A DNA stretch of 64,000 bases from an uncultured Pseudobdellovibrionaceae bacterium (GCA_964519985.1 CAZFMF010000018.1:4674-68673), one strand, 5' to 3'. Numbered from the stretch's first letter, positions 8,729-34,897 are shown. The notes: generated from the sequence alone by a model not told the origin. Numbers and translations are program-made.

Positions 8729-9712
<984 letters not shown>

Positions 9713-11226
9713 CTATTTCAGCGCGGCGTAAATCTGTTTCACGACTGCTTCGGGTAGGGGTTTTAAAGGCACCGCTCCCATGGAGTCGTGAACATAGGCC
9801 GGTTTTCGCATTCCATTCAAAACGCAGCTCACTCCCGGAGTGTGAATCAAGATTCCGAGCGCCTTTTGCGACAGGGATGTCTTGCGCCATTCCTCGGGCA
9901 GGAAGGGATCGATTTTGGCAGAAAGCGCATCGCTGTTTTCCTGACTGCGGCGGTTGGCCGCGTCGCGCAGCGCGGCCAGGCACGAACGCAGCTTAGGTAG
10001 GTAGCGGTTTTGCCATTCGGCCCAGGGACCCTGCTGCAGCTGCGTCGAAAGCTGATCGCATAGTTCCGTGACGTGTTGGCTGATCTGTTCCTCCACTTGG
10101 GACCATCGGTCTGCACCTAGGGGAAGATCTTTCACTTGGGCCAGATCCTGGGTCCAACGGAAAAGATCGGATGCCGAAACGCCGCCGCCGGTTTGGATGC
10201 CCGGGGCGATCTTGACCGCGAATTCCCCTTCGAGCAATGCCAGCTGCTCGAGCAGCGTATCGATGGACCCCACTCCGGCGTTTTGACTAAAGTCGGACAG
10301 ACGCACCATTTGCTGTTGGGTAAAGGCGTTCAGCGGGCGATTGACCAAGATCGCAATGCGTTGTTTGGCCGCGAACTCCAACGCGGTTTGGGAATCGGAA
10401 GGCCCGGTGTTTTTCACGAAGTAGGGGCCCGTTTCGTAAAGGTTCATCGGGAGCTGCGCCACGTGAAAATGGTGTTTTTCCGGCGCGCCATTTTTTTCCT
10501 GGGACGCGGCCCGCGCCGCTTCCCAAAAAAGGGACAAGGACGTTGCGTCCGGTCGATCCCCCGGTGCTCCCAAGGTATTGGACGACACGCCGTAGCCTTG
10601 GAGCTTACCCGCGGCCACTTGTTCTTCAAAAAAAACGAACGCGCGGCGCACGCGGTCATAAAACTCCTGCCGCAGCTCAGAGACGCGGAAGGGCGCGCCG
10701 CGTTTGGCCGCGTCCATCATGAAGTATTCCGGATTGTGCAGGAGACAGAAGTCCAGGCATTCGACATCGAGACGTTCCAAAGATTTCTGGAGTTGCACGG
10801 CGAGAAAGTCCGGGTGGATGCAGTGCCAACACCCCTGCATGTATTTCACCATTTCCGCAAAGGGCTGGCCGGAGGCCTCGCGCTCCTGAGCGAGGGCCAG
10901 GGCTTGGCCCTGGACGTAACCGAGTTTCGAAACGAGTACGACCTGTTCCCGATCTAAAACGCCGACCCGGATAAGTTCCGCCAACGCTTTTCCCACCGCT
11001 CGTTCGCTACCGCCGTCGGTATAGTTCGACGAGGTATCGATTAAGTTACAACCCGAAAGCAGGGCGGTCTTAAGGGCTTCGGCTTGAACCGGCGAACGAT
11101 CGTCGACCCGGTAACCACCGAAACCGACGTGAGAGCAATGGAGCCCCGCCTCCAACCACCCTCCGAGTTCGGCCCGCGAATTGAAGTACTCGGCGGTGGC
11201 TTCCGCCGTTGCGTGTCCCGGTATCA
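9713..11226 (-). CDS. Long aldo/keto reductase family oxidoreductase
   Basis: AKR core 'LIDTSSNYTDGGSERAVGKAL...LERLDVECLDFCLLHNPE'. The likely start is an internal Met (MIPGHATAEATAEYF, ~11226, or M at ~11283). The first ~115 codons of the track ORF overlap bolA on the opposite strand and are spurious. Confidence 0.75.
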
Positions 11227-11320
11227 TCGTGCCTCCGGCGGGCACAGTACCCGGGGCCGGCGATACCGGCAATGGCCCCGGCATTGCTTTTCTTGAAGGT
11301 TCAGGTAAGAGAGGGGCTCG

Positions 11321-11560
11321 ATGTTTTCGACGGATAAAATCAAAGAAATGGTAGAGACGGCGTTCCCAGGCTCTTCGGTGCAAGTCCGGGATTTGACCGG
11401 AACGAACGATCATTTTGAGCTCGTCGTGGTTTCCAGTATCTTTGAAGGCAAGCGTCCGGTGGAAAGACATCGGATGGTTTACACGGCCATCGGGGCCGCG
11501 GTGGGAAATGAAATCCACGCGCTCGCGCTCAAGACTTTGACGCCGTCGGAAAACGGCTAG
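11321..11560 (+). CDS. bolA: BolA family protein
   Basis: 79 aa, '...NDHFELVVVSSIFEGKRPVERHRMVY...' BolA fold signature. Adjacent to a CGFS glutaredoxin, the classic BolA–Grx4 pairing. Confidence 0.8.
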   Translation: MFSTDKIKEMVETAFPGSSVQVRDLTGTNDHFELVVVSSIFEGKRPVERHRMVYTAIGAAVGNEIHALALKTLTPSENG

Positions 11561-11570
11561 GGGAAAGAAC

Positions 11571-11909
11571 ATGGTTTACCAAGATGAGGCAGAAGTTCAG
11601 AAAGTGATTTCGGAATCAGTGGCTCAGCATCCGATCATCCTTTTCGTGAAGGGCACCCCGGAGGCGCCGCAATGCGGGTTCTCTAAAGGGGTGATGGACA
11701 TGTTTTCCTATCTCGAGGTTCCTTTCCAGACCGTGAACGTCCTGGCCGATCCGATGATTCGTGAAGGCATCAAGAAGTTCACCCAGTGGCCGACGATTCC
11801 CCAGATCTTTATCAAAGGAGAATTCATCGGCGGCTTCGATATCGTGCGCGATCTCTTCGAACGCGGCGAATTGGAAGCGATGGTGAAATCCGCTACCGCC
11901 CCCAAATAA
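11571..11909 (+). CDS. grxD: Monothiol (CGFS) glutaredoxin Grx4/GrxD
   Basis: 'ILFVKGTPEAPQCGFSKGV...WPTIPQIFIKGEFIGGFDIV'. 112 aa. Confidence 0.9.
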   Translation: MVYQDEAEVQKVISESVAQHPIILFVKGTPEAPQCGFSKGVMDMFSYLEVPFQTVNVLADPMIREGIKKFTQWPTIPQIFIKGEFIGGFDIVRDLFERGELEAMVKSATAPK

Positions 11910-11912
11910 GCC

Positions 11913-13280
11913 GTGTTTTGGAACCACCCTCTGCGCGGCTGGTTTGTTTTCGCTTTTTTCGTTCAATTGCTTTGCCCGATGCCGGTCGGCACGAACCCGG
12001 GTTCCCGGTGGGCGTTGCTCTGCGCGCTCTCCGAAGAGGGGCGCCTCGCGATCGATTCTTACGTCAATCACACCATTGATTGGTCACGGACTCCGGAAGG
12101 TCACTATTATTCCAATAAGGCCCCTGGCCCGGCACTCTTAGCTTTTCCCGTCTTCAAACTGCTCGATGGGTGGCAGACGCGTGGCATCGCCGATCGCGCG
12201 GAGCGGGACCGGATTCGGTATTTACAGCGGGGAAATAACACCCGCTTGCTGTCCTTTCTCTTCCAAGTCTTTCCTTTTTTCGCGCTCGTTTTTTGGTGGT
12301 TGCGGCGATTGGAACGCCAGGGCGTTTCCCGGGACGCCGTCGCGGGTGCGGCCATGGCGCTACTGTTGGGCAATACGGCCTGCGTTTTCCTCAACTCCTT
12401 TTTTGGCCACGGGGTCACCGCGGTTTGTGCCTTGGCGACCTTGGCGGCGGCCGTTCAGGGATCGGTGGCCGCGGCCGCCTTTTTCTTCGGGTGGGCTCTG
12501 CTCTGCGACTATTCCGCCGCCGTACTACTACTACCGCTCGGGCTTTTTTGGATTCCCGATTTTCGCGCTTCGCCCGCGCGGGGGCTTTGGTTTTTGCGGC
12601 TTGTCGTCGGTGCGGCCGTGCCGGCGGTCCTATGGATCGGGTACCACCAGATTTGCTTCGGTGGGCCGTTCACGATTGCCAATGCGTTTCAGAACCCGCT
12701 CTTCATCGAGCCCGATGCGAGTCGCCTGGGGGGAATCCTTTCCCTCCCGAACCCGGTGGTGGCGTGGGAGCTGCTCTTTGGAACGGCGCGCGGGTTGTTG
12801 TGGACCCAGCCCTGGGTACTGGTGATGTTGGCGGCGCCGTGGCTCTTCCCAATCGATCGGGCGGCGCGCTTCGCGTTTGTCACTTTCGCCTTACTCTTCG
12901 CGGTGAATGCGGCCTTTAACGGTTGGCACGGGGGCGATAGCGCGGGCCCGCGCTACCTCGCCGCCGGGTTAGCGTTGATGGGGGTGGCGTTGGGCCTAGT
13001 TTGGGATGGATTTTCGTCTCCGTTGCGGGCCGCGCTGCGATTCACGGTGAGTGTGGCCGTGGTTTTTCAGCTGGTGCTGTTCTCCGTCTACCGAATGCCG
13101 CACTATCAGCCGCTCTGGCGTTTCTTTCGGGACGAGCTGGTGGGAGAGAAGTGGGCCACCCCCGTGTCGCGATTGGCCCTGACGTTGCCGATCGCGCTAC
13201 TGCTGATCTACCGAACTTGGCGCGAGCGTCCGAACAAGTCACCGAGCAGCCGTCCCTTTTCGCCGGCGGCGGCAAACTGA
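11913..13280 (+). CDS. Polytopic membrane protein, putative GT-C-fold glycosyltransferase (family unassigned)
   Basis: 455 aa with about 10 hydrophobic segments. The start is uncertain (GTG at 11913, or Met at ~11979). Confidence 0.45.
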   Translation: MFWNHPLRGWFVFAFFVQLLCPMPVGTNPGSRWALLCALSEEGRLAIDSYVNHTIDWSRTPEGHYYSNKAPGPALLAFPVFKLLDGWQTRGIADRAERDRIRYLQRGNNTRLLSFLFQVFPFFALVFWWLRRLERQGVSRDAVAGAAMALLLGNTACVFLNSFFGHGVTAVCALATLAAAVQGSVAAAAFFFGWALLCDYSAAVLLLPLGLFWIPDFRASPARGLWFLRLVVGAAVPAVLWIGYHQICFGGPFTIANAFQNPLFIEPDASRLGGILSLPNPVVAWELLFGTARGLLWTQPWVLVMLAAPWLFPIDRAARFAFVTFALLFAVNAAFNGWHGGDSAGPRYLAAGLALMGVALGLVWDGFSSPLRAALRFTVSVAVVFQLVLFSVYRMPHYQPLWRFFRDELVGEKWATPVSRLALTLPIALLLIYRTWRERPNKSPSSRPFSPAAAN

Positions 13281-14110
13281 AATCCGGCCACGTCCTTGAC
13301 TAGGCAGTAAGCGAGATTGAGTTTCACGATCACGGCCCGAGCCGCCACTCGCGCGGCCCGCACCCAACCGCGCTTCGCGCACTGATCGGCCAGTTTTGCG
13401 AACAACGCCGATTCTTCGCGAAAACGAAGCGCGTTTTGAGTGTAGGCGGTCGTACTGTTGCCGGCGTGGCGCCGGTACGCGTATGCGAATTCGGGTAAAC
13501 CAATAAGGGTCCGGCCTTCGAAGAGCAACCGGGCCCAAAGATCGAGGTCCTGAACCATTTCCCATTGGGGATCAAAGCGCAGGGTTCCCAGTACCGATTT
13601 GCGAAAACAGGCGGTCGGACAAAAGAGAAAGTTTCCCCGGAGCAATGCGCGCAATCCCTCTTCTCCCGTGAGCAAAATCGTCTCTCGCCGCGATGGCATC
13701 AGGAAGCCCTTGTAAAAATCGGGAAAAGAAAAAACCGGTCGACCCTCGCCATCCATTACCCGGGCGCGGCAAAAAACGGCCGCCGCCTCCGGATACTGGT
13801 GGGCGGCTTCGCGCATCCGCCTCGCGTAGTTCGGCAAGAGTGCGTCGTCGCCGTGCAAGAGCGTCACGAGATCGGTTTCGGCAAGCTCGAGACAACGATT
13901 CCAATTGCCAACCATTCCCAAGCGCGTGGCGTTGTGCACGTAGCGGATGCGGGGGTCGGCGAGTCCGTCGACGAACTCCCGAATCCCGGTCTCCGTACCG
14001 TCATCGCTGATCACCAGCTTCCACTCGCTCTCGGATTGGGCCAGTACGCTGTGTACCGCTTTTTCCAAAAGGGGTCGGCCGCGGTAAAAGGGAATCGCAA
14101 AACTGATCAT
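13208..14110 (-). CDS. Glycosyltransferase family 2
   Basis: 'MISFAIPFYRGRPLLEKAVHSVLAQSESEWKLVISDDGTE' is a GT2 N-terminal motif. Confidence 0.8.
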   Translation of the reverse strand: MISFAIPFYRGRPLLEKAVHSVLAQSESEWKLVISDDGTETGIREFVDGLADPRIRYVHNATRLGMVGNWNRCLELAETDLVTLLHGDDALLPNYARRMREAAHQYPEAAAVFCRARVMDGEGRPVFSFPDFYKGFLMPSRRETILLTGEEGLRALLRGNFLFCPTACFRKSVLGTLRFDPQWEMVQDLDLWARLLFEGRTLIGLPEFAYAYRRHAGNSTTAYTQNALRFREESALFAKLADQCAKRGWVRAARVAARAVIVKLNLAYCLVKDVAGFQFAAAGEKGRLLGDLFGRSRQVR

Positions 14111-14733
14111 TTGATCGCCAACACGATAAATTCATTGTGGGAGAAGACATGTCCCACCCAGCGGGGGAATGGAAAAGAATAACGCCGCCGAATGGTCAAT
14201 CCCAATTCCACCAGCCACTGCGAAGCGAGTCGGTCATCGACAAAGTTCACATGGGTGGCATCGGATCGGTAGCCGGCCGGCTGCGGGGTGATCACCGCTA
14301 CCTTGCCCCCCTTCCGGACAAACGGGAGATAGTGCGCGAGCAAAGCTTTAGCTTCCGGGGCGGGCAGGTGCTCTAATACGTGGGCGATGAGCAGAGCGTC
14401 AAAACTGGCGGGTTTTGCGTACGGCGAGTATTGGAATTCCTCGGGCAAGAATGCGCGGAGCCCACGCTCGCGCATGCGGCGTACCGCCTCGGCATTGTGA
14501 TCGACCCCAACGCCGTGACCTTCGAGGTGTAGGAGATTACGGCCGATGCCGGCGCCGACGTCCAAAGTAAAACCCAGATCGAGACCGCGAATGTTTCGGC
14601 GGTAAGGGGCTTGCACATCGACGAAACGTCGCCAGCCACGCGATTCAATGCGCGCGAGTCGCAACGCGTATTCCCGGTCCTTCGTATTGGGACTTTCCAC
14701 CCTCAAACCATACGTTCGCCGACGCAGGCCCAC
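14107..14733 (-). CDS. Class I SAM-dependent methyltransferase
   Basis: 'LDVGAGIGRNLLHLEGHGVGVDHNAEAVRRMRERG' (motif I). The stop overlaps the start of the downstream GT2 (4 nt). Confidence 0.8.
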   Translation of the reverse strand: MGLRRRTYGLRVESPNTKDREYALRLARIESRGWRRFVDVQAPYRRNIRGLDLGFTLDVGAGIGRNLLHLEGHGVGVDHNAEAVRRMRERGLRAFLPEEFQYSPYAKPASFDALLIAHVLEHLPAPEAKALLAHYLPFVRKGGKVAVITPQPAGYRSDATHVNFVDDRLASQWLVELGLTIRRRYSFPFPRWVGHVFSHNEFIVLAIK

Positions 14734-14786
14734 AACCCCGAAAAACTTCGGTTGTTTTCTCTCCCGAAACTCGCGATCCTAGGCGG

Positions 14787-15257
14787 ATGAAACGCCTTTG
14801 CTGCTTGATTTTGGTCGGTCTGACTCCCTTGGTTTTAACCGCGGCCCCCGTCCAGCACCTAACCGTCGAGGGCGTCCGGCCGGCGCGTCTAAAAGCAAAC
14901 CAAGCGGCGGAAGTGGTGGTGGAAGTCAAAGTCCGCGATGGATTTCACGTCCAAGCCAATCCCGCCAGCAAGCCGCAGCTCATTGCGACCCGGATCGATC
15001 TGGCCGGGGGCAAGGGCCTCAGTATTGGTCGCCCGCTGTACCCACAAGGCAAACCCTATAAAGTCGGGGGATTGTCGATGACGGTCTCGACCTACGACGG
15101 CCGTTTTGAACTCAAAATCCCCATCAAGGCTTCTTCGCTGGCCAGCCCCGGCAAACAGGATCTGGCGGGTAAGATCCGTTACCAGGCTTGCGACGATAAA
15201 CTGTGCTTTCCACCGACGCTGGCCAAGTTCTCAGCCTCCGTGGAAGTCCTTCCCTAG
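14787..15257 (+). CDS. Secreted protein with a DsbD N-terminal (thiol:disulfide interchange)-like domain
   Basis: Signal peptide 'MKRLCCLILVGLTPLVLTAAP'. C-terminal 'IRYQACDDKLCFPPT' Cys pair resembles the DsbD α / DsbD_2 domain. Confidence 0.5.
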   Translation: MKRLCCLILVGLTPLVLTAAPVQHLTVEGVRPARLKANQAAEVVVEVKVRDGFHVQANPASKPQLIATRIDLAGGKGLSIGRPLYPQGKPYKVGGLSMTVSTYDGRFELKIPIKASSLASPGKQDLAGKIRYQACDDKLCFPPTLAKFSASVEVLP

Positions 15258-15284
15258 AGACATTTTCGGATTTAGGATGCCCCC

Positions 15285-16070
15285 ATGTTGAACGGCGAGA
15301 AAGTAGTTTGCGTCCTTCCGGCCTACAACGCCGAAAAGACCTTGGAAAAAACCTTGCAGGATGTGCCCGCCGGAGTGGTGGATCTTTATATTCTCGTCGA
15401 TGACTGCTCGAGCGATGCGACGGTGGCATTGGCCGAGCGCCTGCAGAGCCGATTTCCACTCAAGGTCATTCGCCACGACTCCAATAAGGGTTATGGCGGC
15501 AACCAAAAAACGTGTTACCGCGAAGCGATGAGTGAGGGCGCCGAGGTCGTGGTGATGTTGCATCCGGACTATCAGTACGAGCCCAAGCTTCTCGGGGCCT
15601 TGGCGGGTTTAGTAGCCAACGGCGTCTACGATGTTTCCCTTGGCTCGCGGATCTTGGGTATGGGGGCTCTCAAAGGGGGAATGCCCCTTTACAAGTACCT
15701 CTTCAATCGAGCTTTGACCTTGATCGAAAATCTTTTGATCGGCCAAAAACTTTCCGAGTACCACACGGGATACCGAGCCTACTCCCGGCGTGTTTTGGAT
15801 CAGGTGGCGTTCGATATCAATAGCGATGACTTTGTTTTCGACAACGAGATGCTGGTCCAATGCCACGTGGCGGGTTTTCGTATCGGCGAGATTTCGGTGC
15901 CGACCAAATACTTCCCGGAAGCCAGCTCCATCAATTTCCGTCGCAGCGTAAAGTATGGTTTCGGGGTTCTGCGCTGTTCCCTGGAAGGGTTTCTCTTTCG
16001 CACCGGATTGCGGAAACACCCACGCTTCCGAGGTTCCACTACCGTTTCCCTTCCCACTTCCCTGGGATAA
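15285..16070 (+). CDS. Glycosyltransferase family 2, dolichyl/polyprenyl-phosphate hexose synthase-like (Dpm1-like)
   Basis: 'VVCVLPAYNAEKTLEKTLQDVPAGVVDLYILVDDCSSDAT'. 261 aa. Confidence 0.8.
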   Translation: MLNGEKVVCVLPAYNAEKTLEKTLQDVPAGVVDLYILVDDCSSDATVALAERLQSRFPLKVIRHDSNKGYGGNQKTCYREAMSEGAEVVVMLHPDYQYEPKLLGALAGLVANGVYDVSLGSRILGMGALKGGMPLYKYLFNRALTLIENLLIGQKLSEYHTGYRAYSRRVLDQVAFDINSDDFVFDNEMLVQCHVAGFRIGEISVPTKYFPEASSINFRRSVKYGFGVLRCSLEGFLFRTGLRKHPRFRGSTTVSLPTSLG

Positions 16071-16096
16071 GATAATTCCCGGTCGGGGGATAGAAA

Positions 16097-18124
16097 ATGC
16101 GCACTCGTTCCAAACGCTTACGAGCCGCGGGGCCGTGGCTTGTCGCACTGAGTCTGTATTCGATTTTGCTCTTCGTTCTCCTGCGGGTACACCATTCGAC
16201 GGTTTCCGCCGAACCCGATCAGTACTACCACCTGGCGATGGCCCGTCTGATGGCCGAGAACGGCCTGATTGATTCGGTGCCGCAAGCCGACAATATGGTT
16301 TGGAAGGAGAAGTTCACTAACATTTACTTCCTTTTTACCGCCCTGACGGCGGCGGCCTGGAAAGTCGGCGGAGAACCCGCCGCGCGGGCGATTTCGCCAC
16401 TACTGACGCTCGCTCTTTTGCTGCTCCTATTTGCTTTTTGTCGGCGCTATCTCAATTGGAAATGGGCGCTCTTTCTCCCGGTCCTGCTACTGCTTCTAAA
16501 TCCGTCGACTTTCTCCCGGTATATTCATCTGCGCCCATCGGTGCTCGCCGAGTGCTTGGTGGTGGGAATGATGCTCGCGATCGTTTCGGGCCATCGCTAC
16601 GCCTTGCTGGCCACGGCTTTCTTGTTCCCCCTTAGCTACCACGCCCTGTACGTGCCCTTAACTGTTTTAGTCGGCGCGGCGGGTATTGGGTATTTTCTAG
16701 ATAAGGACGAATGGACCCGGGATGCGCTTTACGGTTTTGGGGCGTTGGCGTTGGGTTGCGTCTGCAACCCGTACTTTCCGGCGACGCTCGCGCCGATCAC
16801 CGCGAGCTTTTCGGCCGTGGCGAAGACCGGTGTGCATTGGACTGATGCGCCTATGGAAATTTTCGGCTGGGATCGGGAACGGTTTTTTGGACGCATTCCC
16901 TTTTTTGGTTTTGTGCTCGGGGCGGCCGCTTGGCTGGCGCTCTCTAAGTCGAAGAAGAAATGGGATCGGTCCGAATTTTTTTTCCTCTTCGGTTTGGCCG
17001 CGATGTTTTCGGCGCTGCTTTTTGTCTCCTATCGGGCGATGGAGTATGCGGGACCGATGCTGGTCCTGCTTTCGGCTTTCGTGATGTCGCGTCTCGCCCA
17101 ATCGCCGAAGGAGCTGGGTTTTTTGATGGCGGCCGCGGTGTTGGTGAGCTTGCCCGAGAGCGTTCGCCTTTTCCGGGTACCGTTGCCGACTCCGATCGAT
17201 TCGGTTTCCCAGCGGTCCGCGATTGATTCCATTCCGAAGGGGGAAGGGAAGAAGGTTTTTAATTGCGATTGGTCTTCGGGTGGGCCCTTGCTCTATTTGC
17301 GTCCCGACTTGAAGTTCATCGATTTGGGAGACCCGACCGCGATGGATTCGGCAAGCTCGATATTTCGTGGCTTGCGGACGGCGGTGATTGACGGCCAAAT
17401 CCCTTTTCTATTTGGACCGGTCCGCCACGCCTTCCAATCGGACTACGTGTTTTGCCAGAACCGGCCACTATTGGGAGCATTGGAACGGGATCCTCATTTC
17501 CGTCGCATCTATCCGCCCGGTCCGGCGGGGCTGGCATCGTTGAGTGCGGAGGGCTACGCCGTATATGAAGTCGCGCCCGCCCGGCACCCAAGCTTCGTCT
17601 CCGAACTGGAAAAGCAAGGCAAAGCGGGCCGGGAAAAATTGCGGACATCGCAGGCATTGCCGGAGCCGCAGCGCAGTCCCTTTTTCAATCTCTCCGCGCC
17701 TCCCGCCGCCCGCGCGATATCCAGTGAAGAGAAAGACTGTGAGCAGATTGTAGTACCCCGGGAAGAAGTGGCCCGACGACAAGGCGCCCAGTTTCTCGGG
17801 TTGGGGGGTGGTCCGGAAATGCGCGTGCAATGGAACGGAAAGCCCCTCTTCCGTCGGCACGGTGCTCGCCCCACCCAAAGTCTGGATGTCTTGATCCCGT
17901 TGCCCCAGCCGCTCGCGGCCGCGGATCGGATTGAGATTCGTGTCTGTCCGGGTTGGAATCTTCCGCAGATGGGAGTGGCAGTTTCCCTGTGGAAAAGCAC
18001 GGAAATCAAGGCGACGTGCCATTGGAAGGGAACGGCGGAGGCTTCGGCCACCGAAGTCCTTTTCTCCGAGCGCCCCGCTTACACCTGCCTCGGCACCATT
18101 GCTTCCCCGGCGCGGTCTTTATGA
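16097..18124 (+). CDS. Large GT-C-fold membrane glycosyltransferase-like protein with a C-terminal soluble domain
   Basis: 675 aa. About 370 aa of TM segments precede a soluble domain. The first extracytoplasmic loop carries 'EPDQYYHLAMARLM', reminiscent of the ArnT/PMT-type acidic loop motif. Confidence 0.55.
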   Translation: MRTRSKRLRAAGPWLVALSLYSILLFVLLRVHHSTVSAEPDQYYHLAMARLMAENGLIDSVPQADNMVWKEKFTNIYFLFTALTAAAWKVGGEPAARAISPLLTLALLLLLFAFCRRYLNWKWALFLPVLLLLLNPSTFSRYIHLRPSVLAECLVVGMMLAIVSGHRYALLATAFLFPLSYHALYVPLTVLVGAAGIGYFLDKDEWTRDALYGFGALALGCVCNPYFPATLAPITASFSAVAKTGVHWTDAPMEIFGWDRERFFGRIPFFGFVLGAAAWLALSKSKKKWDRSEFFFLFGLAAMFSALLFVSYRAMEYAGPMLVLLSAFVMSRLAQSPKELGFLMAAAVLVSLPESVRLFRVPLPTPIDSVSQRSAIDSIPKGEGKKVFNCDWSSGGPLLYLRPDLKFIDLGDPTAMDSASSIFRGLRTAVIDGQIPFLFGPVRHAFQSDYVFCQNRPLLGALERDPHFRRIYPPGPAGLASLSAEGYAVYEVAPARHPSFVSELEKQGKAGREKLRTSQALPEPQRSPFFNLSAPPAARAISSEEKDCEQIVVPREEVARRQGAQFLGLGGGPEMRVQWNGKPLFRRHGARPTQSLDVLIPLPQPLAAADRIEIRVCPGWNLPQMGVAVSLWKSTEIKATCHWKGTAEASATEVLFSERPAYTCLGTIASPARSL

Positions 18125-20277
18125 CGAAGAAGCGAGTCCGCCAAGCCAGTCGACGGGGACAGCCCGAACTCGAACGTTGGTTGCCGGCCTTGATTGTGGC
18201 CAGCTTCCTCGTGCCGCTCATGTTTTTGGTTTTGCTTTTTTGCGATATGCGCGCACAGGAAGCGCAATTCCTATTGATTGATGGTGTCTTCCAAACGCTG
18301 GATCCATTACGGCGCCTTTTCTCCGGCCAGGTCTTTTTCCGCGATTTCGTTTCTTACCTCGGCATTGGCCACACCTTGATGTACGTGCCACTTTTCGCGT
18401 TGCTCGGCCAAACGCTTTACGCCTCCATGTTTTCCGCGCATTTCGTGGTTTGCATTGCCACCGGTGCTTCATTGGTCTTAGTCGCGGCGATGGTTTTTCG
18501 TTCTTGGCGTTGGGGCGCGATCTTGGCGGCCGTTTTCCTGGCGCACGCGATCTTTAACCCTTCGCTGCAATTCATCTTGCTTCCCCCGACATTCATCGAT
18601 CCCGGTGTTTCGGGACGTCCGATCCGCCTTTTCCTACCTACGTTGATTGCCTTGATCCTCTATTTTAGTTGGCCGCGGCTCAGTGGGAAAACCCGTCGCG
18701 CCGCGATTCACCGTGCCGCCGCTCTGGCCGGGCTGGGAGCGGTCTCCATCTTTTACAGCAATGACTACGGGCTGCCGGTGGCGGTGACCCTTCCATTGGT
18801 TTTTATTTTCCTGCGGCCGGGCAATTCGCAGCGTGGAATCGAACTGGGCATCTACGCCCTCGTCTTGCCGATTCTCATTTTCCTGCTGGGCAATTTACTG
18901 ACCCTTGGACATTTCTTCGACTGGTACCGGTACAACTTCGATTGGGTCGCACGTTCCCAGTTTTGGTATTTTGAAGATTACACAAAAAAACTGGTTGGCC
19001 TGGGGGATTGGCTCCAGTTCTGGATGCTGGAGGATGCGTACAAGGTACGGATGGTCGCGTGCGTACCCCTGCTCATTTACATTTGGTTCCGCGGGCCGGC
19101 GGGCCTCACCGCTCCCGCCGTGCTGCTTTTCTTGGGGATTACCCATCTTCTCTCGGCGATTGTCGTTCAGTTTGGATCCTGGCGGGATAGTGGCTACGAA
19201 TTAGGCTTAGCGCTCGAATATAAGTTCATCGAGCTCTATTGCATTCTGTTTTTGCTCCGCCAATTGCCGTGGGCGCGCCTCTTCAAGCGTCTCGGCAAGG
19301 GGGCACGGCGCCAGTGGGAACGGATTGTCGCGCGGGAGCGAGAGTTTCGCGACATCGCCTTCGTGGTGGGTGCGCTAACCACGGCTATCTATATTGGTTC
19401 TCAAGCCATGCGCCTGCAGCGATTTTACGAATCGGTCGACTCAGCGTTTGGTGAGCGCCCGACGATGCCGATCGTGGACCGGACCCTCGATGATCAACGC
19501 AAGCTGGATATGCAGGTTTTGGCCTCACTCAAAGCCCAGCTCGGCGCGGGCACGGTCCTTTCCGAGTACAGCGGCTTAGATCTCCTGGGATTGGGTAAGA
19601 TCAGTGATAGTCGCGCCGGCCTAATCATTCACGCTTTCGGAGGAGATCGAGAGGCGATCGTCGATAAACTGACGCGCAAGTCGACCGCGCTGGTTTCGAC
19701 GGTTTCCAATCGGTTTACCAACTGGATTGAATGGAGCGTGCGGCAGAACTGGTGGTTCTACCGACCCCTTTACGAAAACTACCAATTGGTGGCCGCGAGT
19801 CCGGGTTACCTTTTTTGGAAACCGCGAGTCCGTCCGCTTGCCTTCGACTCCGAAAAGCTGACCTGCCGCTGGACGCAGACGAACGGGAGATTTTTTTTCT
19901 CCGTTACGCGCGAGAGCGGCAAGCCGCGTTGGAAGGAAAATGCGTTGGCGGAGTTGGAGCTGACGGTTCGCCCGGGCGATCTGAGTGGCTACCGCAAGAC
20001 CCTGCAGCGGGAACTACTGGTCCTCGCTTTTCCCGAAACCCCCATGGAACAGGTTGTGAATCAAAATGGATTGCGTATGGGGCGTCCGGTAGTGCCGGGG
20101 TCGTTTGCCTTTCCGATCGAGGTGCGAAACTCGGGGAAAATGCGTTTCGAAATGAACCTGGAGGCGACCTTTCCCCGGACGATTTCCGTGGAGGCGTGCG
20201 CGGCAAAGGTGATTGCGCCCATGAGCACATTTCGCCCGCCGCGTGAACGTCCCTACGCACCCCGGGTCAGCGAGTGA
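18121..20277 (+). CDS. Large polytopic membrane protein (GT-C-like) with a C-terminal soluble domain
   Basis: The ATG at 18121 overlaps the upstream stop (ATGA). 'MTKKRVRQ...LIVASFLVPLMFLVLLF' is followed by many TM helices. About 718 aa. Confidence 0.5.
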   Translation: MTKKRVRQASRRGQPELERWLPALIVASFLVPLMFLVLLFCDMRAQEAQFLLIDGVFQTLDPLRRLFSGQVFFRDFVSYLGIGHTLMYVPLFALLGQTLYASMFSAHFVVCIATGASLVLVAAMVFRSWRWGAILAAVFLAHAIFNPSLQFILLPPTFIDPGVSGRPIRLFLPTLIALILYFSWPRLSGKTRRAAIHRAAALAGLGAVSIFYSNDYGLPVAVTLPLVFIFLRPGNSQRGIELGIYALVLPILIFLLGNLLTLGHFFDWYRYNFDWVARSQFWYFEDYTKKLVGLGDWLQFWMLEDAYKVRMVACVPLLIYIWFRGPAGLTAPAVLLFLGITHLLSAIVVQFGSWRDSGYELGLALEYKFIELYCILFLLRQLPWARLFKRLGKGARRQWERIVAREREFRDIAFVVGALTTAIYIGSQAMRLQRFYESVDSAFGERPTMPIVDRTLDDQRKLDMQVLASLKAQLGAGTVLSEYSGLDLLGLGKISDSRAGLIIHAFGGDREAIVDKLTRKSTALVSTVSNRFTNWIEWSVRQNWWFYRPLYENYQLVAASPGYLFWKPRVRPLAFDSEKLTCRWTQTNGRFFFSVTRESGKPRWKENALAELELTVRPGDLSGYRKTLQRELLVLAFPETPMEQVVNQNGLRMGRPVVPGSFAFPIEVRNSGKMRFEMNLEATFPRTISVEACAAKVIAPMSTFRPPRERPYAPRVSE

Positions 20278-22825
20278 GCCGCTGAAACTCCGCGGAGGCG
20301 AGTGCCGCGGCCCCATCATTTAGAATGACCTCGACCTCGGTGATCGGACTCCCCACCAGCCACCGGGGGGCGGTGCCCAGGGGCAGCAAGAAACGACCCG
20401 GTTTCCACTCGAAATTGAAAGACCCACTACTGCCGTCGACGGAGGTCCAGTGCAGACGCCCGCTCCCCCACGGAGCTCGGGGATCGCCGGGAATCTCCAG
20501 CCGCAGAAAATCGGCACGGCCGGTGGCACCGTCGAGGGCCCCACTGGTCACCCGCCAATGCCCTTTCTCACTCGCCACGATCGTGGTGGCCCGCCTTTCG
20601 AATCGGTTTTCCAGGCGGGGCCAGTTGCGTCCCCACGCGTGCGGCAGTCGTTGGAGATCGATCGGCTGGAGGATCCCGTTCAAGACTTCCAGCTCCTTCG
20701 CGTCCATCGGACCGGAGATGCGTGCGTTTGGATTCTTCTCTTTGTGGACCAAGGCCGCGAACGGTTTATGAACGGTTAGCGAATAGAGGTCCGACTCCAA
20801 TAGCCACCGGTACACGCGGTAGTTGCGAATGGACGCCGGGCCTTCCAGGTGGCGGATGGAAGGTGCGAGCCAAACCAGCGCGGGCGGGCTTTTCTTGAGG
20901 GCGGAAAGGTTTCGATTTTGGAAACCTTCGTCGAACGCGTGGTAGTCGGAGGCCAAGGGCACCGGCACCCGTTCGTCGAGAAGCGCATAGAGTAACGAAC
21001 GATTGGTCAGATCGAGATAGTTCTCTTCCGGTGCTTTTGAATTCCGGATCCGGTCCCGGATGGTAATGAGTTCGCGCCAGCGATCCGGGGGGGTGAAGAC
21101 CGCGCCTAGTTTGGGCAGTCCCCAATCCGTTCCCCGCACCAGCACGAACTCCCGCGGCACGGAAACGGGCGTGAAGAGATCGGCGAGTTTCGCACGGGGT
21201 GCCCACATGGAAAGCGGTAGGGCGTACCCCAGCGCGACCCCGGTTAGACCGCTCCACAGCAACGAAAAGGGTCGGCGACTTAGCGCGATGAGACAGCCAA
21301 CCAGGGAGAGGCTTCCCAAGAAAACGAGGCTGGTCACCCCGGTTCGGCTCAAGCCAATGGCGGCAATGCGACCGAAGGAATAGGGCAGAAGGAGCAAGGG
21401 GCCGAGTAAACTGAGGCAACCCACCAAAAACAAGGGCGGGAAGCTCCGTTCCGCTTTCTTTCTCGCGCGTGCCGCCATGACGAGAAAGATCCCACCCAGC
21501 GCCATGGACAAGAGCCAGCCCCCGCTACGCATTGCTTCAATGCTGAGTCGGTACGCCGGGTGGTCCCAGTCGATCGGCAGCGAGTGCGTGGTATCGGGCT
21601 GGACGACCCCGAGACCATAGGCGACTGAGTTCGCGCGCCCGTTGGCGAGTCCGAACGTCACGACCCCCACGAGCCAATTCCAACTCACGCCGATAAACGC
21701 TAGTACGGCGGCGACTCCGGCCGCGAGTTGCCGAAAGTTCCAGCGCGGACGAGTGAGGTAGAGTGTTGCGGCTAAGGCGATGCCGGTCGAAACGGTCCAG
21801 GCTACGCCCGAGGGGAGATTGTACAAGATCGCAAACAGGGCGAGAGCCGCCCAAGTCGGCCCTCGGACGGAGGGGCGGGCGACTAACCAGGGATCTAAAA
21901 TCAGCAAAGTGAACGGCAAGAGGCAGAGGAGGCGATCGCCGCCCTCCGGGTAGATCGCTAAGACCGGCAACATCCAGCCGGCGAGTCGAGGCCCCAGAAC
22001 CCGTGCGGCGAGGACCAAGCAAAGCCCGCCCACCTGGCTTTCGACGGAAGCCTTCGCGATCAGGTAAGTTCCGAGATCACCACCGTAAATCCACTGATTC
22101 CAGTAGCCGGCCACCATTCCCAACAGACCTTGGACCGGGACAAAATCAACGTAAGGTCGGGCACCCTTTTCATGGATTTGGTGCCAAGCGGTATAGAGCT
22201 CACCCAAATGGAAATCATCCAAGAGCAAGGGGCTCCACGCGGGTAAGGTATAGGCGGACAGCGTGCCCAGGGTGAAAAAGGTGGGCCAGGCGACGACGCA
22301 TTTCGGATCGCGCTTCAGCGTGCGCGCACTCAGCACCATTAGCCCGGCGATCGCGGCGCTGAGGAAAATCCAACCCTGCTCGTTGGGTCCGAAAGATTCG
22401 GACGCCTCTTGGAAACGAAATCCGATTTGGACGGTCGCGAACAATAGGAGTGGGCACCCGACTTGGAGTGGACGGAGTTTGGCAATGAGTTTCGGGTCCA
22501 GGCGGAGGCGTCCGATGGCGAAAGCAACGACCAAGGCCAGAACGGGAACTTCTAAAGCCAGCGGAGCGGCCAGTCGCCAATGCAGGACGAGCGCCACCAG
22601 AATTCCTGCGGCCCATCCCGCAAACGGGGCCCAAGGATGCGGACTGACCAGGCGATGGCGGGCCTTCTTGGTCAGGCTCTTTTCAACCCCGTAAGCAGCG
22701 CCCCATATTACGGCGAGAAAAACGGCGGTGCTGATCAATGCCCCGACGAAATCGCGGGTTTTGGAATAGTCGGCCCAGGCGATCGCCCCGGCCACGATAT
22801 CTTGATAGTTTTGTTCGAGCGTCAT
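20267..22825 (-). CDS. Large polytopic membrane protein (GT-C-like) with a C-terminal soluble domain; last gene of a 6-gene operon
   Basis: 852 aa. About 560 aa of TM helices ('DDFHLGELYTAWHQIHEKGARPY' acidic loop) precede a soluble tail of roughly 300 aa. The start overlaps the upstream gene's stop. Confidence 0.5.
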   Translation of the reverse strand: MTLEQNYQDIVAGAIAWADYSKTRDFVGALISTAVFLAVIWGAAYGVEKSLTKKARHRLVSPHPWAPFAGWAAGILVALVLHWRLAAPLALEVPVLALVVAFAIGRLRLDPKLIAKLRPLQVGCPLLLFATVQIGFRFQEASESFGPNEQGWIFLSAAIAGLMVLSARTLKRDPKCVVAWPTFFTLGTLSAYTLPAWSPLLLDDFHLGELYTAWHQIHEKGARPYVDFVPVQGLLGMVAGYWNQWIYGGDLGTYLIAKASVESQVGGLCLVLAARVLGPRLAGWMLPVLAIYPEGGDRLLCLLPFTLLILDPWLVARPSVRGPTWAALALFAILYNLPSGVAWTVSTGIALAATLYLTRPRWNFRQLAAGVAAVLAFIGVSWNWLVGVVTFGLANGRANSVAYGLGVVQPDTTHSLPIDWDHPAYRLSIEAMRSGGWLLSMALGGIFLVMAARARKKAERSFPPLFLVGCLSLLGPLLLLPYSFGRIAAIGLSRTGVTSLVFLGSLSLVGCLIALSRRPFSLLWSGLTGVALGYALPLSMWAPRAKLADLFTPVSVPREFVLVRGTDWGLPKLGAVFTPPDRWRELITIRDRIRNSKAPEENYLDLTNRSLLYALLDERVPVPLASDYHAFDEGFQNRNLSALKKSPPALVWLAPSIRHLEGPASIRNYRVYRWLLESDLYSLTVHKPFAALVHKEKNPNARISGPMDAKELEVLNGILQPIDLQRLPHAWGRNWPRLENRFERRATTIVASEKGHWRVTSGALDGATGRADFLRLEIPGDPRAPWGSGRLHWTSVDGSSGSFNFEWKPGRFLLPLGTAPRWLVGSPITEVEVILNDGAAALASAEFQRLTR

Positions 22826-23637
22826 TTTTCCCCGAAGGCCGGACCAATCTCTTTCAGAACCGCGGCAATGACTTCTGTCCTTCCCTCCGGGTTGAGCATT
22901 TCCACGGAGGCGTAAGGGGGAAGATCGAGGCGATTGAAAATATCGACGATAGCTTCAACCTGATCTCGCTTCCGATTTATAATCGGCTGAAGTGCTTCGG
23001 TGCTCAGATGAAAATGGCGAAATGCCGTGCGATGGGTTTCCACCGCTTGGAGGACATTTTCTCCTTCGAGTTCCATGCAACCCCAGTCCCCGTGCAAACC
23101 AAATCCGGGCGTCGCGACCCGATCGACCAAATCGGCGGCTTCGTCAGTGGTGACGATGAAATCGCAGGCATACTTTCTCGCATTCGCTTCCAAACCTAGA
23201 ATCACGCCGTGCTGGGCGGCGGCCTGGCCCACGCGTTGGAAGAAAGGGATCGCGATCTCTAGGGCGCGCTCGGGGGAGAGATTCCCCTTCAACCGGTTGC
23301 GGGGAGAACCGAAAACGAGCACTTTGGCCCCGAGGCGTTCGGCGAGCACAAACATTTTTTCGAGGTATTCGGCGAGGGCATCGCGCCGGGCTTCGTCTCC
23401 GAATAGACGGAGGTCGGGCTTTCCGAAGAGCAGGGATTGGAGCGCGACGATCGGCAATCCGCGTTTTTCCCAAGCGCGCCGGTACGCGGTGGCATCGGCA
23501 GCGGAGACGGCGGTGGGTTCCTTCCAAATCTTACTTGGCGCGATTTCGACGCCACTGACCCCACCCGCCTTCAGTACGGTGGCCACGTCGGCGTCATGCT
23601 TGGGTTCCCAAGCGAGATTGGAGAAAGCGAGTTTCAT
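22822..23637 (-). CDS. Sugar phosphate isomerase/epimerase (xylose-isomerase-like TIM barrel)
   Basis: 'MKLAFSNLAWEPKHDAD...VSGVEIAP...AKVLVFGSPRNR' is a typical AP-endonuclease-2 / TIM-barrel sugar epimerase. The ATG at ~23637 overlaps the upstream stop. Confidence 0.75.
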   Translation of the reverse strand: MKLAFSNLAWEPKHDADVATVLKAGGVSGVEIAPSKIWKEPTAVSAADATAYRRAWEKRGLPIVALQSLLFGKPDLRLFGDEARRDALAEYLEKMFVLAERLGAKVLVFGSPRNRLKGNLSPERALEIAIPFFQRVGQAAAQHGVILGLEANARKYACDFIVTTDEAADLVDRVATPGFGLHGDWGCMELEGENVLQAVETHRTAFRHFHLSTEALQPIINRKRDQVEAIVDIFNRLDLPPYASVEMLNPEGRTEVIAAVLKEIGPAFGEK

Positions 23638-24389
23638 ATTTGCGCAAACTCCCGAAGCTCCTGGAACACTTGCGCGCGGGAATAGAGGTAGCCATCGTCC
23701 CGGCCCCAAAGGGCACAATAGCGGCTTCTCAAATCGTAGGTCGCCGCGGGAGTTGTCGGTGCACTTTTTAGCTCGATTCCCAGCCCCTCGCGAGCGATAT
23801 CCCGCATAGCCGTGGGCTCTACCGCCAAGTGGATCAGCCGCAGCTTGGCGTCGCGGGCCTTTTCAATATCCGACCAAAGGTGTTTCAGATTGTAGAACTG
23901 GAATTTCGCCTCGGGGTGGATGGCTTCCACCAGGTTGTTGTGCATTAAGTCGTAGATCGCATTCTTTTTGAGACCGGGCCCAAAGAGCGCCGGGAGGCGG
24001 ACGATCAGTCCCGAGGGAAACAATCCGGAGAAAAACAGTTCGAGCGCGAATCGGTGCTTGCCGTAAGCGTGGTGATTCGAGGCATCGATCTCCGCCGTTT
24101 CATCCTTACCTCGGCAATCGGGAAAAACATCGACGGTAGAAATCAAGATCGCATGATCCGCTTTTACGGCGGAAAGATTGTGGATCAGGGCCTGGATATG
24201 CGCGAGGTCACTTTGCGGATCCTTATTGGCTTTCCACTTCTCCGCCCGTGCGCCGGAACAAACCAGCAGATCGAATTTTTTTCCTCGCATCTCGTCGCTA
24301 TTGGCGGAGTGGTAAAGATGCGTAAAGGGGTGTTGGGCCTTCAGGTTGCCACCGACAAAGCCCGTGTGTCCGATCAATGCCGCATTCAC
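23634..24389 (-). CDS. NAD(P)-dependent epimerase/dehydratase (SDR-like, ~251 aa)
   Basis: Rossmann motif 'VNAALIGHTGFVGGNL' at the N-terminus, if the GTG at ~24389 is the start (it overlaps the upstream TGA). The upstream extension in the track is low-complexity. Confidence 0.65.
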   Translation of the reverse strand: MNAALIGHTGFVGGNLKAQHPFTHLYHSANSDEMRGKKFDLLVCSGARAEKWKANKDPQSDLAHIQALIHNLSAVKADHAILISTVDVFPDCRGKDETAEIDASNHHAYGKHRFALELFFSGLFPSGLIVRLPALFGPGLKKNAIYDLMHNNLVEAIHPEAKFQFYNLKHLWSDIEKARDAKLRLIHLAVEPTAMRDIAREGLGIELKSAPTTPAATYDLRSRYCALWGRDDGYLYSRAQVFQELREFAQI

Positions 24390-25183
24390 TTGGGTGACTC
24401 CAGCTTGGGATCGAAACGGTGCCGACACGCATCGAGCAAAGTTCGCATCACCTTGATTTCCCCTTTGATGCCCTTGATTTTTGTCGGCGGCGCCTCGCCG
24501 GCGGGGTAGCGCCGTTCCACCGGAACCTCGGTCACGCGGAATCCCAGGCGGCCCGCGCGAATGGCTAGGTAGTAGTGCAATTCGTACTTGGTAAATACCT
24601 CGCGAAAGGGCTGGACTCGGGGATCGGTTAGAAATCGACGGCTGTACGCGCGAAACCCATTGGTGGTGTCGGTATAACGCACTCCCGCCGCCATCGAGAT
24701 CAAGGGCGCGTGGATGCAGCGGATGGCCAGAATGCGTTTCCACGGATTGTGGATGGCCTTACCTCCCGGCACGAACCGAGAACCTTGGATGTGATCGAAT
24801 CCCTTTTCCAGCGCGTCAATGAATCGGGTGATGCCCTCCACTCCGTCTTTATCATTTCCGTCGATGAGAATGATCCCTTCGTAGCCATCTTCGATAGCTT
24901 GGGCGAGGCCAATGCGGAGCTGCGCGCTCAGCCCCAGCGGTCGGGGCATGGCGAGATACCCCCGGAAACCATTGCGTTTCAACAGTTCGGAGGTAACGGC
25001 GCCGTCGGTGCTTCCGCCATCGACGAGGAAGGCGTCCACCTGATTCGCGAACGGGGCGAGCTTTACGGCCTGTCGGCGAATGCGTTCGCCCTCATTAAGC
25101 ACGGGAACGATGAGGGCGTACTTCGAGGACTTGGCCCGAAACAGTTCGCAAGTGTGGGATGGGACTTGCCAGCCCGCGTTCAT
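24386..25183 (-). CDS. Glycosyltransferase family 2
   Basis: 'YALIVPVLNEGERIRRQAVKLAP...FLVDGGSTDG...IILIDGNDKDG'. 265 aa. Confidence 0.75.
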   Translation of the reverse strand: MNAGWQVPSHTCELFRAKSSKYALIVPVLNEGERIRRQAVKLAPFANQVDAFLVDGGSTDGAVTSELLKRNGFRGYLAMPRPLGLSAQLRIGLAQAIEDGYEGIILIDGNDKDGVEGITRFIDALEKGFDHIQGSRFVPGGKAIHNPWKRILAIRCIHAPLISMAAGVRYTDTTNGFRAYSRRFLTDPRVQPFREVFTKYELHYYLAIRAGRLGFRVTEVPVERRYPAGEAPPTKIKGIKGEIKVMRTLLDACRHRFDPKLESPK

Positions 25184-27284: not shown

Positions 27285-27490
27285 GGCGTCATTATACCGG
27301 GGTTGGCGTCAGAAGCTTAGACAGTTCCGGGTTTTCGCCGCTTTGAAAAACAGGAGGCTAGACCGGGGGTATACGGGTCTTTGGAGCGTCAAAATGCCAC
27401 GCGGTGACTACCCACTTTGAGTGCTCACGAGTAGTCGCGGTCTGGCAAATTCTTTGCACTTCTATCCGGTCAATACGAGTGGAGTGCGCG

Positions 27491-28072: not shown

Positions 28073-28160
28073 GTCTTCGAAATCATGAACATCGCAGTGC
28101 GCCAGCGCGCTGCATTATTTTCCTTTAGTTCGCCCTTCTTTCCTTCCGATAAGTCGAAGG

Positions 28161-29201: not shown

Positions 29202-29203
29202 AA

Positions 29204-34827: not shown

Positions 34828-34897
34828 CCGGAAAGACTCTACGGCGAATCTTATCCTGGACGCCAGTCCGGATATTCGCGATAATGGGGGCAATCCC

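Follow-up and report, generated by a model that had tools for sequence, protein, structure and literature searches.

Glycosyltransferases of the GT-C fold build or decorate N-glycans, O-mannose, lipid A aminoarabinose and mycobacterial arabinan, and they are hard to recognise from sequence. Can a cluster of large, unannotated membrane proteins conceal such enzymes, and what would the cluster do? This question is raised by a 64,000-nucleotide (nt) stretch of DNA from an uncultured Pseudobdellovibrionaceae bacterium (GCA_964519985.1 CAZFMF010000018.1:4674-68673), here called the window, in which four membrane proteins of 455, 675, 718 and 852 amino acids (aa), designated M455, M675, M718 and M852, are encoded among genes for family-2 glycosyltransferases (GT2). 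An earlier reading of this DNA, referred to below as the original prediction, had proposed an envelope-glycan assembly line containing three consecutive GT-C-like proteins. Our analysis revealed that M675 is a structurally supported GT-C enzyme missed by every family profile, and that M852 represents several hundred clusters that lack annotation and share a sharply defined loop motif.

A GT-C fold is predicted for M675

None of the four membrane proteins gave a usable match in Pfam, in NCBIfam or among the PDB sequences, either alone or as family profiles. The profile search itself works, since a genuine GT22 protein elsewhere in the window was detected by it. The assignment to a CAZy family that the original prediction had envisaged was not obtained for any of the four, as no PMT, PMT_2, STT3, GT22 or GT87 match was found at E <= 0.1.

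The structure of M675 was modelled with AlphaFold (AF2) from a ten-sequence alignment with identities of 30-84%, giving a predicted local distance difference test score (pLDDT) of 77.4 and a predicted template modelling score (pTM) of 0.77. In a Foldseek comparison of this model with the PDB, all of the 20 top matches were GT-C glycosyltransferases, 18 of them at E <= 1e-3. STT3 from yeast and human gave the best structural matches (1.6e-8 to 1e-6). The DPY19 C-mannosyltransferase (1.9e-6, template modelling (TM) score 0.53, root-mean-square deviation (rmsd) 7), PglB (4.7e-6), AglB, ALG9, ALG12, AftD and AftA were also found, then ArnT (1.2e-3), and chains of AftB, Pmt4 and ALG3 ranked lower. 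The alignments spanned 450-850 columns, with TM-scores mostly of about 0.4-0.54. On the basis of this model, M675 is a GT-C-fold enzyme. As it escapes every family profile, it stands for a sequence family not described before; a faint Pfam match to EpsG was seen at E = 0.038.

In the model, a membrane domain (residues 1-360) is followed by a periplasmic alpha/beta domain and a beta-sandwich (365-675). The first periplasmic loop, which comes after a helix preceded by a basic N-terminus, carries the conserved residues D41 and H45. E254 is invariant and lies within a flexible loop (244-259) modelled with low confidence, and a further invariant segment reads R313-A-x-E316-Y-A-x-P320. D41, H45 and E254 are candidate active-site residues in this model. 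Two cysteines of the periplasmic domain, C390 and C453, are also invariant.

In three other loci, L004, L039 and L040, a GT2 gene lies one to three genes away from a distant homologue of M675 (30-32% identity). In L004, the GT2 gene directly follows a 31%-identical homologue, and in L039 it is convergent with the homologue and abuts it. In L040 (1300-10380), a shorter homologue, 30% identical, comes directly after two type IV pilin genes. The L040 cluster also encodes a PMT_2 protein, two membrane proteins of 640-650 aa with an F-D-D first-loop motif and no Pfam match, and a GT2 enzyme; it looks like a multi-GT-C pilin glycosylation cluster.

M455 is probably related to M675

Profile comparison suggests that M455 is a probable remote GT-C relative or paralogue of M675. 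The two families were aligned by hhalign with a probability of 65% (E = 6e-5), over 307 columns in register that cover the whole membrane domain of both. This match is stronger than that of the M675-family profile with genuine GT-C sequences (PMT_2 and GT22 proteins), which served as a control and stayed below 5%. As this control also fails, negative sequence results for M718 and M852 are no argument against a GT-C fold. Among the named GT-C families, no Pfam match was found for five M455 orthologues at E <= 10.

A metagenome scan yielded 30 relatives of M455. An alignment of 25 sequences shows D56-W57, Y65, S67-N-K-A-P-G72, Y244-H245, W338 and R347-Y348 to be invariant, and the long first loop carries the motif H-Y-Y-S-N-K-A-P-G. 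The original prediction had described M455, M675 and M718 as polytopic proteins with C-terminal soluble domains. Hydropathy agrees for all four proteins as to the polytopic character, and the domains are present in M675 and M718, but M455 has no C-terminal soluble domain and is membrane-embedded almost to its end.

In other lineages, M455 homologues lie 2-4 kb from a GT2 gene whose product is 59-68% identical to GT2_261, the GT2 enzyme encoded next to M675. In L010 (9314-12136), a 459-aa protein whose PMT_2 match is sub-threshold (E = 1.3e-4) comes directly after the homologue, then a 475-aa protein without a Pfam match and a convergent GT2 gene, 62% identical to GT2_261. Since distant homologues of both M675 and M455 adjoin GT2 genes, the pairing of such a membrane protein with a Dpm1-like GT2 enzyme is older than the locus in the window, and the case for a functional link rests mainly on it.

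M718 and M852 carry conserved acidic loops

The AF2 model of M718, built from five sequences, is of low confidence (pLDDT 45.5, pTM 0.35). Foldseek matched only the C-terminal 130 residues, none at E <= 1e-3, to the pro-BMP9 prodomain, an Eph ligand-binding domain and beta-sandwiches resembling carbohydrate-binding modules. M718 possesses a C-terminal soluble domain that ends in a beta-sandwich and contains two invariant cysteines. The loop after its first helix is invariant and reads D54-G-V-F-Q-T...P-L-R-R-L...R74-D-F-V, including R64-R65 and R74-D75.

M852 belongs to a large family. When 1.84 billion cluster representatives (clusters at 50% identity) were searched exhaustively with HMMER, 629 were returned at E <= 1e-3, among them 127 at E <= 1e-30. 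Family members are about 700-1150 aa long, mostly about 1000 aa, and the shorter ones (about 700-800 aa) start one helix before the loop motif. This loop reads D-D-F-H-x-G-E...Q...P-Y-x-D-F-V-P-x-x-G, with an invariant D-x2-H-x2-E, and 45 diverse members all share D203, H206, E209, R494 and R667. These 45 members gave no Pfam match at E <= 0.1, the family profile gave no match in the PDB, and a tblastn search with M852 against 72,556 plasmids gave none either. Source names within the family are all 'hypothetical protein', including that of a Paenibacillus periandrae entry; members are also on record from metagenomes. The word-indexed protein search found three relatives of M852, compared with 629 by HMMER, and missed the 41%-identical orthologue in the related locus L001. 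As this type of search understates family size, the counts of five sequences for M718 and ten for M675 are lower bounds, and the apparent rarity of both families has to be read accordingly.

Pairwise BLASTP among M675, M718 and M852 revealed no paralogy. The M718 and M852 families were weakly matched by hhalign at the acidic-loop motif (155 co-linear columns, 11% probability, E = 0.003), and hmmsearch between them gave no match. Homology of M718 and M852 was not accepted, given this low probability and the missing H and E in M718; it is a lead at most. A weak similarity was also seen between the periplasmic domains of M852 (609-676) and M675 (425-495), with a BLASTP E-value of 0.04 and an hhalign probability of 43%; the membrane domains show none.

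The conserved first-loop acidic residues that the original prediction had suggested looking for are present in all four families: D41 in M675, D48 and D56 in M455, D54 and D75 in M718, and D203 and E209 in M852. Their periplasmic side is predicted by the positive-inside rule, read from sequence for the M718 and M852 loops. The claim of three consecutive GT-C-like proteins thus stands for the modelled fold of M675, but it is not shown for M718, whose model reaches a pLDDT of only 45, or for M852, which has no GT-C family match.

The smaller enzymes and a secreted DsbD-like protein

Three GT2 enzymes, GT2_261, GT2_265 and GT2_331, are likely of the polyprenyl-phosphate monosaccharide synthase type according to their best family similarity. 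Of the two GT2 enzymes described in the original prediction, GT2_261 proved indeed to be Dpm1-like, being closest to polyprenyl-phosphate hexose synthases in NCBIfam (DPhHxTase 1.6e-13, AglJ 1.6e-12, PpgS 4.4e-12). It has no membrane helix by hydropathy and is the best-conserved gene of the locus, with 78-95% identity in relatives versus 37-81% for the membrane proteins. GT2_265 shows the same profile of matches (DPhHxTase 4.3e-10, AglJ 1.3e-9), so that the two enzymes together cover 1e-13 to 1e-8 against DPhHxTase, AglJ and PpgS, and GT2_331 aligns over its full length to PgfS (2.2e-25) and ArnC (2.4e-15). The other enzyme of the original prediction, GT2_300, matches PglI (2e-15) and WcaA (5e-14), far below the equivalog cut-offs. 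As the GT2 scores do not reach these cut-offs, they indicate the type of enzyme but not the donor sugar.

With regard to the remaining enzymes, the nearest families to the TIM-barrel protein are 5-keto-L-gluconate and psicose 3-epimerases (IolO-like 1e-11, psicose 3-epimerase 3.7e-6). The 251-aa protein resembling short-chain dehydrogenases/reductases (SDR) gave sub-threshold Epimerase and RmlD_sub_bind matches in all three orthologues, and its PDB match to a dTDP-4-dehydrorhamnose reductase (1vl0) is weak at E = 0.07. The predicted S-adenosylmethionine (SAM) methyltransferase is present and is a generic class I enzyme by Pfam.

The 156-aa DsbD-alpha-like protein encoded before GT2_261 also corresponds to its earlier description as a secreted protein with a cysteine pair. 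The DsbD_N match (45.7 bits against a cut-off of 25) is accompanied by an N-terminal hydrophobic signal segment, and the C135-x4-C140 pair is invariant in five orthologues, as is the segment RYQACDDKxCF, which is followed by a near-invariant P-P. In each of the four related lineages, the genes are arranged as DsbD_N, GT2_261, M675. The DsbD_N gene is not found next to the distant M675 homologues in L004, L039 and L040. No DsbD beta/CcdA membrane partner was found at the locus, the only part of the window examined for it. Redox care of periplasmic domains by this protein, as originally suggested, would be compatible with the invariant cysteines of M675 and M718; the protein might just as well act as acceptor or as accessory subunit.

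Organization of the locus

Reading of the open reading frames (ORFs) on both strands gave four transcription units instead of one plus-strand cluster (Table 1). The cluster had been described as lying on the plus strand, which is true of most genes, but GT2_300 and the methyltransferase sit on the minus strand. A single plus-strand operon is ruled out by the strands. The ORF coordinates and sizes given originally were borne out, and the ATGA overlap of M675 and M718 at 18121-18124 was verified in the sequence.

In unit 1, gaps of 10 nt and 3 nt separate bolA from the glutaredoxin gene and the latter from M455. The bolA and glutaredoxin genes are probably co-transcribed with M455, which does not imply a functional link. 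The BolA-Grx-M455 order is kept in every relative, among them L002, L003 and L005, and these are unexpected companions for an envelope enzyme; the glutaredoxin is a second redox-flavoured neighbour, besides the DsbD_N-like protein. The methyltransferase and GT2_300 genes of unit 2 overlap by 4 nt; GT2_300 is convergent with M455, overlapping it by 73 nt, and the unit is divergent from the DsbD_N gene. In unit 3, gaps of 27 nt (DsbD_N to GT2_261) and 26 nt (GT2_261 to M675) precede the ATGA overlap. Every junction in unit 4 is a 4-nt start/stop overlap, and its last gene, M852, is convergent with M718, with an overlap of 11 nt. A scan for promoters and terminators gave no more sites than shuffled sequence.

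Table 1. Genes of the locus and their transcription units; unit 2 consists of two genes, and unit 4 of six genes running from 27284 down to 20267.
Feature	Coordinates	Strand	Unit	Family match or remark
GDP-mannose 4,6-dehydratase	8750-9712	+		PF16363, 5e-137
bolA	11321-11560	+	1	ORF reading
CGFS-type monothiol glutaredoxin	11571-11909	+	1	PF00462, 2.3e-18
M455	11913-13280	+	1	455-aa polytopic membrane protein
GT2_300	13208-14110	-	2	Soluble family-2 glycosyltransferase, 300 aa; PF00535, 5.9e-22
Class I SAM-dependent methyltransferase	14107-14733	-	2	Methyltransf_11/25/12/23, 1e-8 to 3e-7
DsbD_N-like protein	14787-15257	+	3	Secreted stand-alone DsbD-alpha-like protein, 156 aa; PF11412, 8e-12
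GT2_261	15285-16070	+	3	261 aa, Dpm1/AglJ/PpgS-like; PF00535, 3.7e-21
M675	16097-18124	+	3	675 aa, GT-C fold by model
M718	18121-20277	+	3	718 aa from ATG at 18121, polytopic
M852	20267-22825	-	4	852 aa, last gene of the operon
TIM-barrel protein	22822-23637	-	4	Xylose-isomerase-like; PF01261, 2.5e-19; ATG at 23637
SDR-like protein	23634-24389	-	4	251 aa, Rossmann GxxGxxG start; GTG start at 24389
GT2_265	24386-25183	-	4	Second Dpm1/AglJ/PpgS-like GT2; PF00535, 2e-6
GT2_331	25180-26175	-	4	PgfS/ArnC-type, predicted membrane-anchored; 331 aa from the GTG start at 26175, the same length as in relatives
Flavin adenine dinucleotide (FAD)-dependent oxidoreductase	26172-27284	-	4	DAO family, first gene of the operon; PF01266, 8.3e-17

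Conservation in related lineages

When all proteins of the window were compared with related loci by tblastn, they were found gene for gene at 37-95% identity. Because the array is syntenic at this level of protein identity, its genes are real and not chance ORFs. The proteins of the window are themselves recorded from an NCBI contig of 71,939 bp. The whole array is syntenic in L001, a metagenome-assembled genome labelled uncultured Pseudobdellovibrionaceae that was found by a genome scan, and in L005/L006 and L007/L008, found by contig look-ups. In L002/L003, the core alone is present, comprising gatA/B, GDP-mannose 4,6-dehydratase, the aldo-keto reductase, bolA, grx, M455, GT2, methyltransferase, DsbD_N, GT2 and M675.

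The synteny to which the original prediction had looked therefore holds for the core from M455 to M675, in all four related lineages, but the M718/M852 half is absent from the L002 lineage. There, the genes after M675 encode a CN-hydrolase, an agmatine-deiminase-type protein, an AlkZ-related protein and a GT22 protein, the same genes that occupy 30785-34899 in the window. Given that the L002 backbone resumes after M675 (compared over L002 12047-13121), the block 18121-30784 is a variable insertion or deletion relative to L002. Besides M718 and the M852 operon, this block encodes a 222-aa protein, an OmpA/BON protein (28161-29201) and a 526-aa protein of coiled-coil-like character (29204-30784). 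In L002, M675 is followed by a 197-aa protein and then by the shared CN-hydrolase gene.

Several further features of the backbone were observed. The GDP-mannose 4,6-dehydratase, which is 84-86% identical in L001 and L002, is a conserved neighbour that possibly supplies a precursor. It is always followed by a convergent gene for an unusually long (about 500 aa) aldo-keto-reductase-like protein (8750-11240 for the pair), and no GDP-fucose synthase or Rmd-type reductase was seen near it. The adjacent minus-strand genes for the CN-hydrolase and a Porphyromonas-type agmatine/peptidyl-arginine deiminase (30785-32676) have overlapping ORFs and belong to the conserved backbone; we take them to be the usual agmatine-to-putrescine pair. 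The GT22 protein (33421-34899, minus strand; PF03901, 2.2e-13) is a fifth polytopic glycosyltransferase, Alg9-like and thus a recognisable GT-C enzyme, located 11 kb downstream in the conserved backbone and also in L002. Outside the locus, at 1124-3166 on the minus strand, a 680-aa protein combines HEAT repeats with a C-terminal cyclophilin-type prolyl isomerase domain.

Discussion

On balance, we somewhat favour the reading that this locus carries out glycosylation at the periplasmic face of the inner membrane, using lipid-phosphate-sugar donors. According to this proposal, GT2_261, GT2_265 and GT2_331 would take single sugars from nucleotide sugars and attach them to polyprenyl phosphate on the cytoplasmic side. 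The resulting lipid-phosphate-sugars would be flipped to the periplasmic face, where the polytopic enzymes with periplasm-facing acidic loop motifs would transfer the sugars to a periplasmic acceptor. In the M852 operon, the sugar donor may be tailored by the FAD oxidoreductase together with the SDR-like protein and the TIM-barrel epimerase, and decoration or extension of the product may fall to the methyltransferase and GT2_300. The secreted DsbD-alpha-like protein would serve the thiol-disulfide chemistry of Cys-containing periplasmic domains. From their sequences, we infer that M718 and M852 may also be lipid-sugar-dependent transferases, because they share an architecture consisting of a basic cytoplasmic segment, a helix, a conserved acidic loop, about ten helices and a C-terminal periplasmic domain. 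The assembly line for an envelope glycan that had been proposed originally is in part sustained by the GT-C fold of M675, the adjoining Dpm1-like GT2 gene, the lack of Wzx, Wzy and ABC exporter families between 8.7 and 36.5 kb and the syntenic core, but its M718/M852 half is variable.

Several observations weigh against this reading. A fold was demonstrated for only one of the four membrane proteins, M675, and no GT-C Pfam family was found for any of the four, even at E <= 0.1-10. Of the three motif residues that are invariant in the M852 family, M718 lacks two, H and E, and all NCBIfam scores of the GT2 enzymes are far below the equivalog cut-offs. No flippase family (GtrA, SMR, MATE) was found among the genes annotated at about 8.7-36.5 kb, and the genes are so tightly packed that there is no room in the locus for an unannotated small membrane protein of this kind. 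Finally, much of the neighbourhood (gatA/B, bolA, grx) is a housekeeping backbone, and some of the adjacency may therefore be historical rather than functional.

An unlikely alternative is that M718 and/or M852 are polymerases or ligases of the Wzy, WaaL or EpsG kind, which act on diphosphate-linked oligosaccharides, or some other membrane enzyme or transporter, so that the locus would be a polysaccharide polymerisation locus in disguise. The absence of fold evidence and of GT-C sequence matches for both proteins speaks for this, and the faint EpsG match of M675 shows how close polytopic families are at the sequence level. The role of a polymerase is vacant, since no separate Wzy was found in the original prediction, and GT2_300 resembles PglI and WcaA, a type that acts on diphosphate-linked intermediates. 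However, the locus contains no priming phosphoglycosyltransferase, Wzx, chain-length regulator or exporter; the originally noted absence of Wzx, Wzy, Wza and ABC exporters holds between 8.7 and 36.5 kb, where no such family was found. Moreover, M852 ends an operon with two predicted polyprenyl-phosphate monosaccharide synthases, and the succession of one helix, a conserved acidic loop and a large C-terminal periplasmic domain is typical of GT-C enzymes.

It is very unlikely that GT2_261, M455 and M675 modify lipid A or the lipopolysaccharide (LPS) core in the manner of ArnC/ArnT or of Francisella FlmF1/FlmK, for example by placing a neutral hexose on lipid A. The nearest genome is labelled Pseudobdellovibrionaceae, and the lipid A of Bdellovibrio reportedly carries mannose in place of phosphate, as Schwudke et al. 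are said to have described in 2003. Every related lineage keeps the core as part of its chromosomal backbone, and ArnT is among the structural matches of M675. A Dpm1-like synthase and a GT-C enzyme put mannose or galactosamine on lipid A in Francisella (PMC2233673). Against this, no relation to ArnT/PMT_2 is seen in sequence, ArnT ranks below STT3, DPY19 and the ALG enzymes, and no lipid A phosphatase gene was seen nearby.

The least probable of these alternatives, in which M675 would be an oligosaccharyltransferase in the STT3/PglB/AglB sense that transfers a preassembled diphosphate-linked glycan onto proteins, possibly the DsbD_N-like protein or pilins, can draw on STT3 heading the Foldseek matches ahead of PglB and AglB, on the pilin genes that directly precede the L040 homologue and on the small secreted protein whose gene opens the M675 operon, but it is opposed by the lack of an STT3 Pfam match and of a WWDYG-type motif in M675 (the nearest, F-N-C-x-W at 388-392, has a variable fourth residue), by DPY19, a user of dolichyl phosphate mannose, being equal by TM-score with a lower rmsd, by a conserved partner that is a Dpm1-like monosaccharide-lipid synthase instead of a diphosphate-oligosaccharide pathway, and by the absence of pilin genes from the annotated parts of the window.

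The structural neighbours of M675 include enzymes whose targets are proteins (STT3, DPY19, PMT), lipid-linked glycans (ALG, Aft) or lipid A (ArnT). A bolder version of periplasmic glycosylation, which we regard as quite unlikely, is that four mutually unrelated-looking and hitherto unclassified GT-C families, of which that of M852 would be widespread, use three lipid-phosphate-sugar donors, one donor being re-tailored by the flavoenzyme, the SDR-like protein and the TIM-barrel epimerase in the fashion of DprE1/E2 and the arabinosyltransferases, and build a dedicated envelope lipoglycan or a neutral lipid A/LPS decoration in Bdellovibrio-like bacteria. If the other three membrane proteins were GT-C enzymes, they would add new families to the catalogue and point to an unrecognised envelope glycoconjugate in predatory or related bacteria, in which surface chemistry bears on prey recognition and immune evasion. 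Otherwise, the finding would shrink to one new GT-C family in an ordinary glycosylation locus.

Comparison with known systems

The kind of system proposed here is already known. What is new is the profile-invisible GT-C family of M675, the unannotated M852 family with its loop signature, the apparently rare M718, and the packing of these proteins with three GT2 genes of the lipid-sugar synthase type and with a DsbD-alpha-like protein. The latter resembles the DsbD alpha domain in its above-cut-off DsbD_N match, its secretion signal and a Cys pair in a YQxC...C(F/Y)PP-like context. Unlike DsbD, it stands alone, without the membrane and thioredoxin-like domains, and its spacing is C-x4-C.

Systems that combine a GT2 synthase and a GT-C enzyme with auxiliary epimerases and C-terminal carbohydrate-binding domains have been described (PMC11127046). 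In three-component systems such as GtrA/GtrB/GtrC or Citrobacter ORF15/14/12 (GT136), a cytoplasmic polyprenyl-phosphate monosaccharide synthase works with a periplasmic GT-C enzyme that has a C-terminal beta-sandwich, and auxiliary epimerase-type genes can diversify the donor (PMC11127046). The window locus shares with them three GT2 genes of the synthase type beside membrane proteins and the GT-C fold of M675. In contrast, it has no flippase gene, it encodes four large membrane proteins instead of one, three of them unclassified, it is not surrounded by an O-antigen or capsule locus, and M675 lies outside the existing sequence families.

The mycobacterial DprE1/DprE2 and Emb/Aft system, in which a flavoenzyme and an SDR re-tailor a lipid-linked sugar before several large GT-C enzymes make use of it, offers a parallel that is a resemblance only. 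The M852 operon likewise encodes a flavoenzyme, an SDR-like protein, two lipid-sugar synthase-like GT2 enzymes and a large membrane protein, and AftD and AftA are among the structural matches of M675. However, the flavoenzyme is of the DAO family and not of the DprE1 type, the SDR similarity is sub-threshold, and no phosphoribosyl pyrophosphate-dependent synthase is present.

In ArnC/ArnT and in the lipid A glycosylation of Francisella by FlmF1/FlmF2 and FlmK (PMC2233673), a Dpm1/ArnC-like GT2 enzyme is likewise paired with a GT-C enzyme, and the full-length alignment of GT2_331 with ArnC (2.4e-15) and the ArnT match of M675 (1.2e-3) belong to this likeness. The window locus differs in having neither a PMT_2/GT83 signature nor sugar-nucleotide genes of the ArnA/B/D type.

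The closest structures are those of STT3/PglB/AglB and DPY19 (GT-C class A), which match M675 at 1.6e-8 to 9e-6, with TM-scores of 0.46-0.54 over 500-850 columns. Like M675, they have an acidic residue in their first external loop and, beyond the last helix, a mixed domain that is periplasmic or lumenal, whereas sequence identity is only 9-14% and neither the STT3 Pfam match nor the WWDYG motif is shared. Within this class, the Dpm1-like GT2 enzyme encoded beside M675 points to a monophosphate-linked single-sugar donor, as for DPY19, and not to a diphosphate-linked oligosaccharide.

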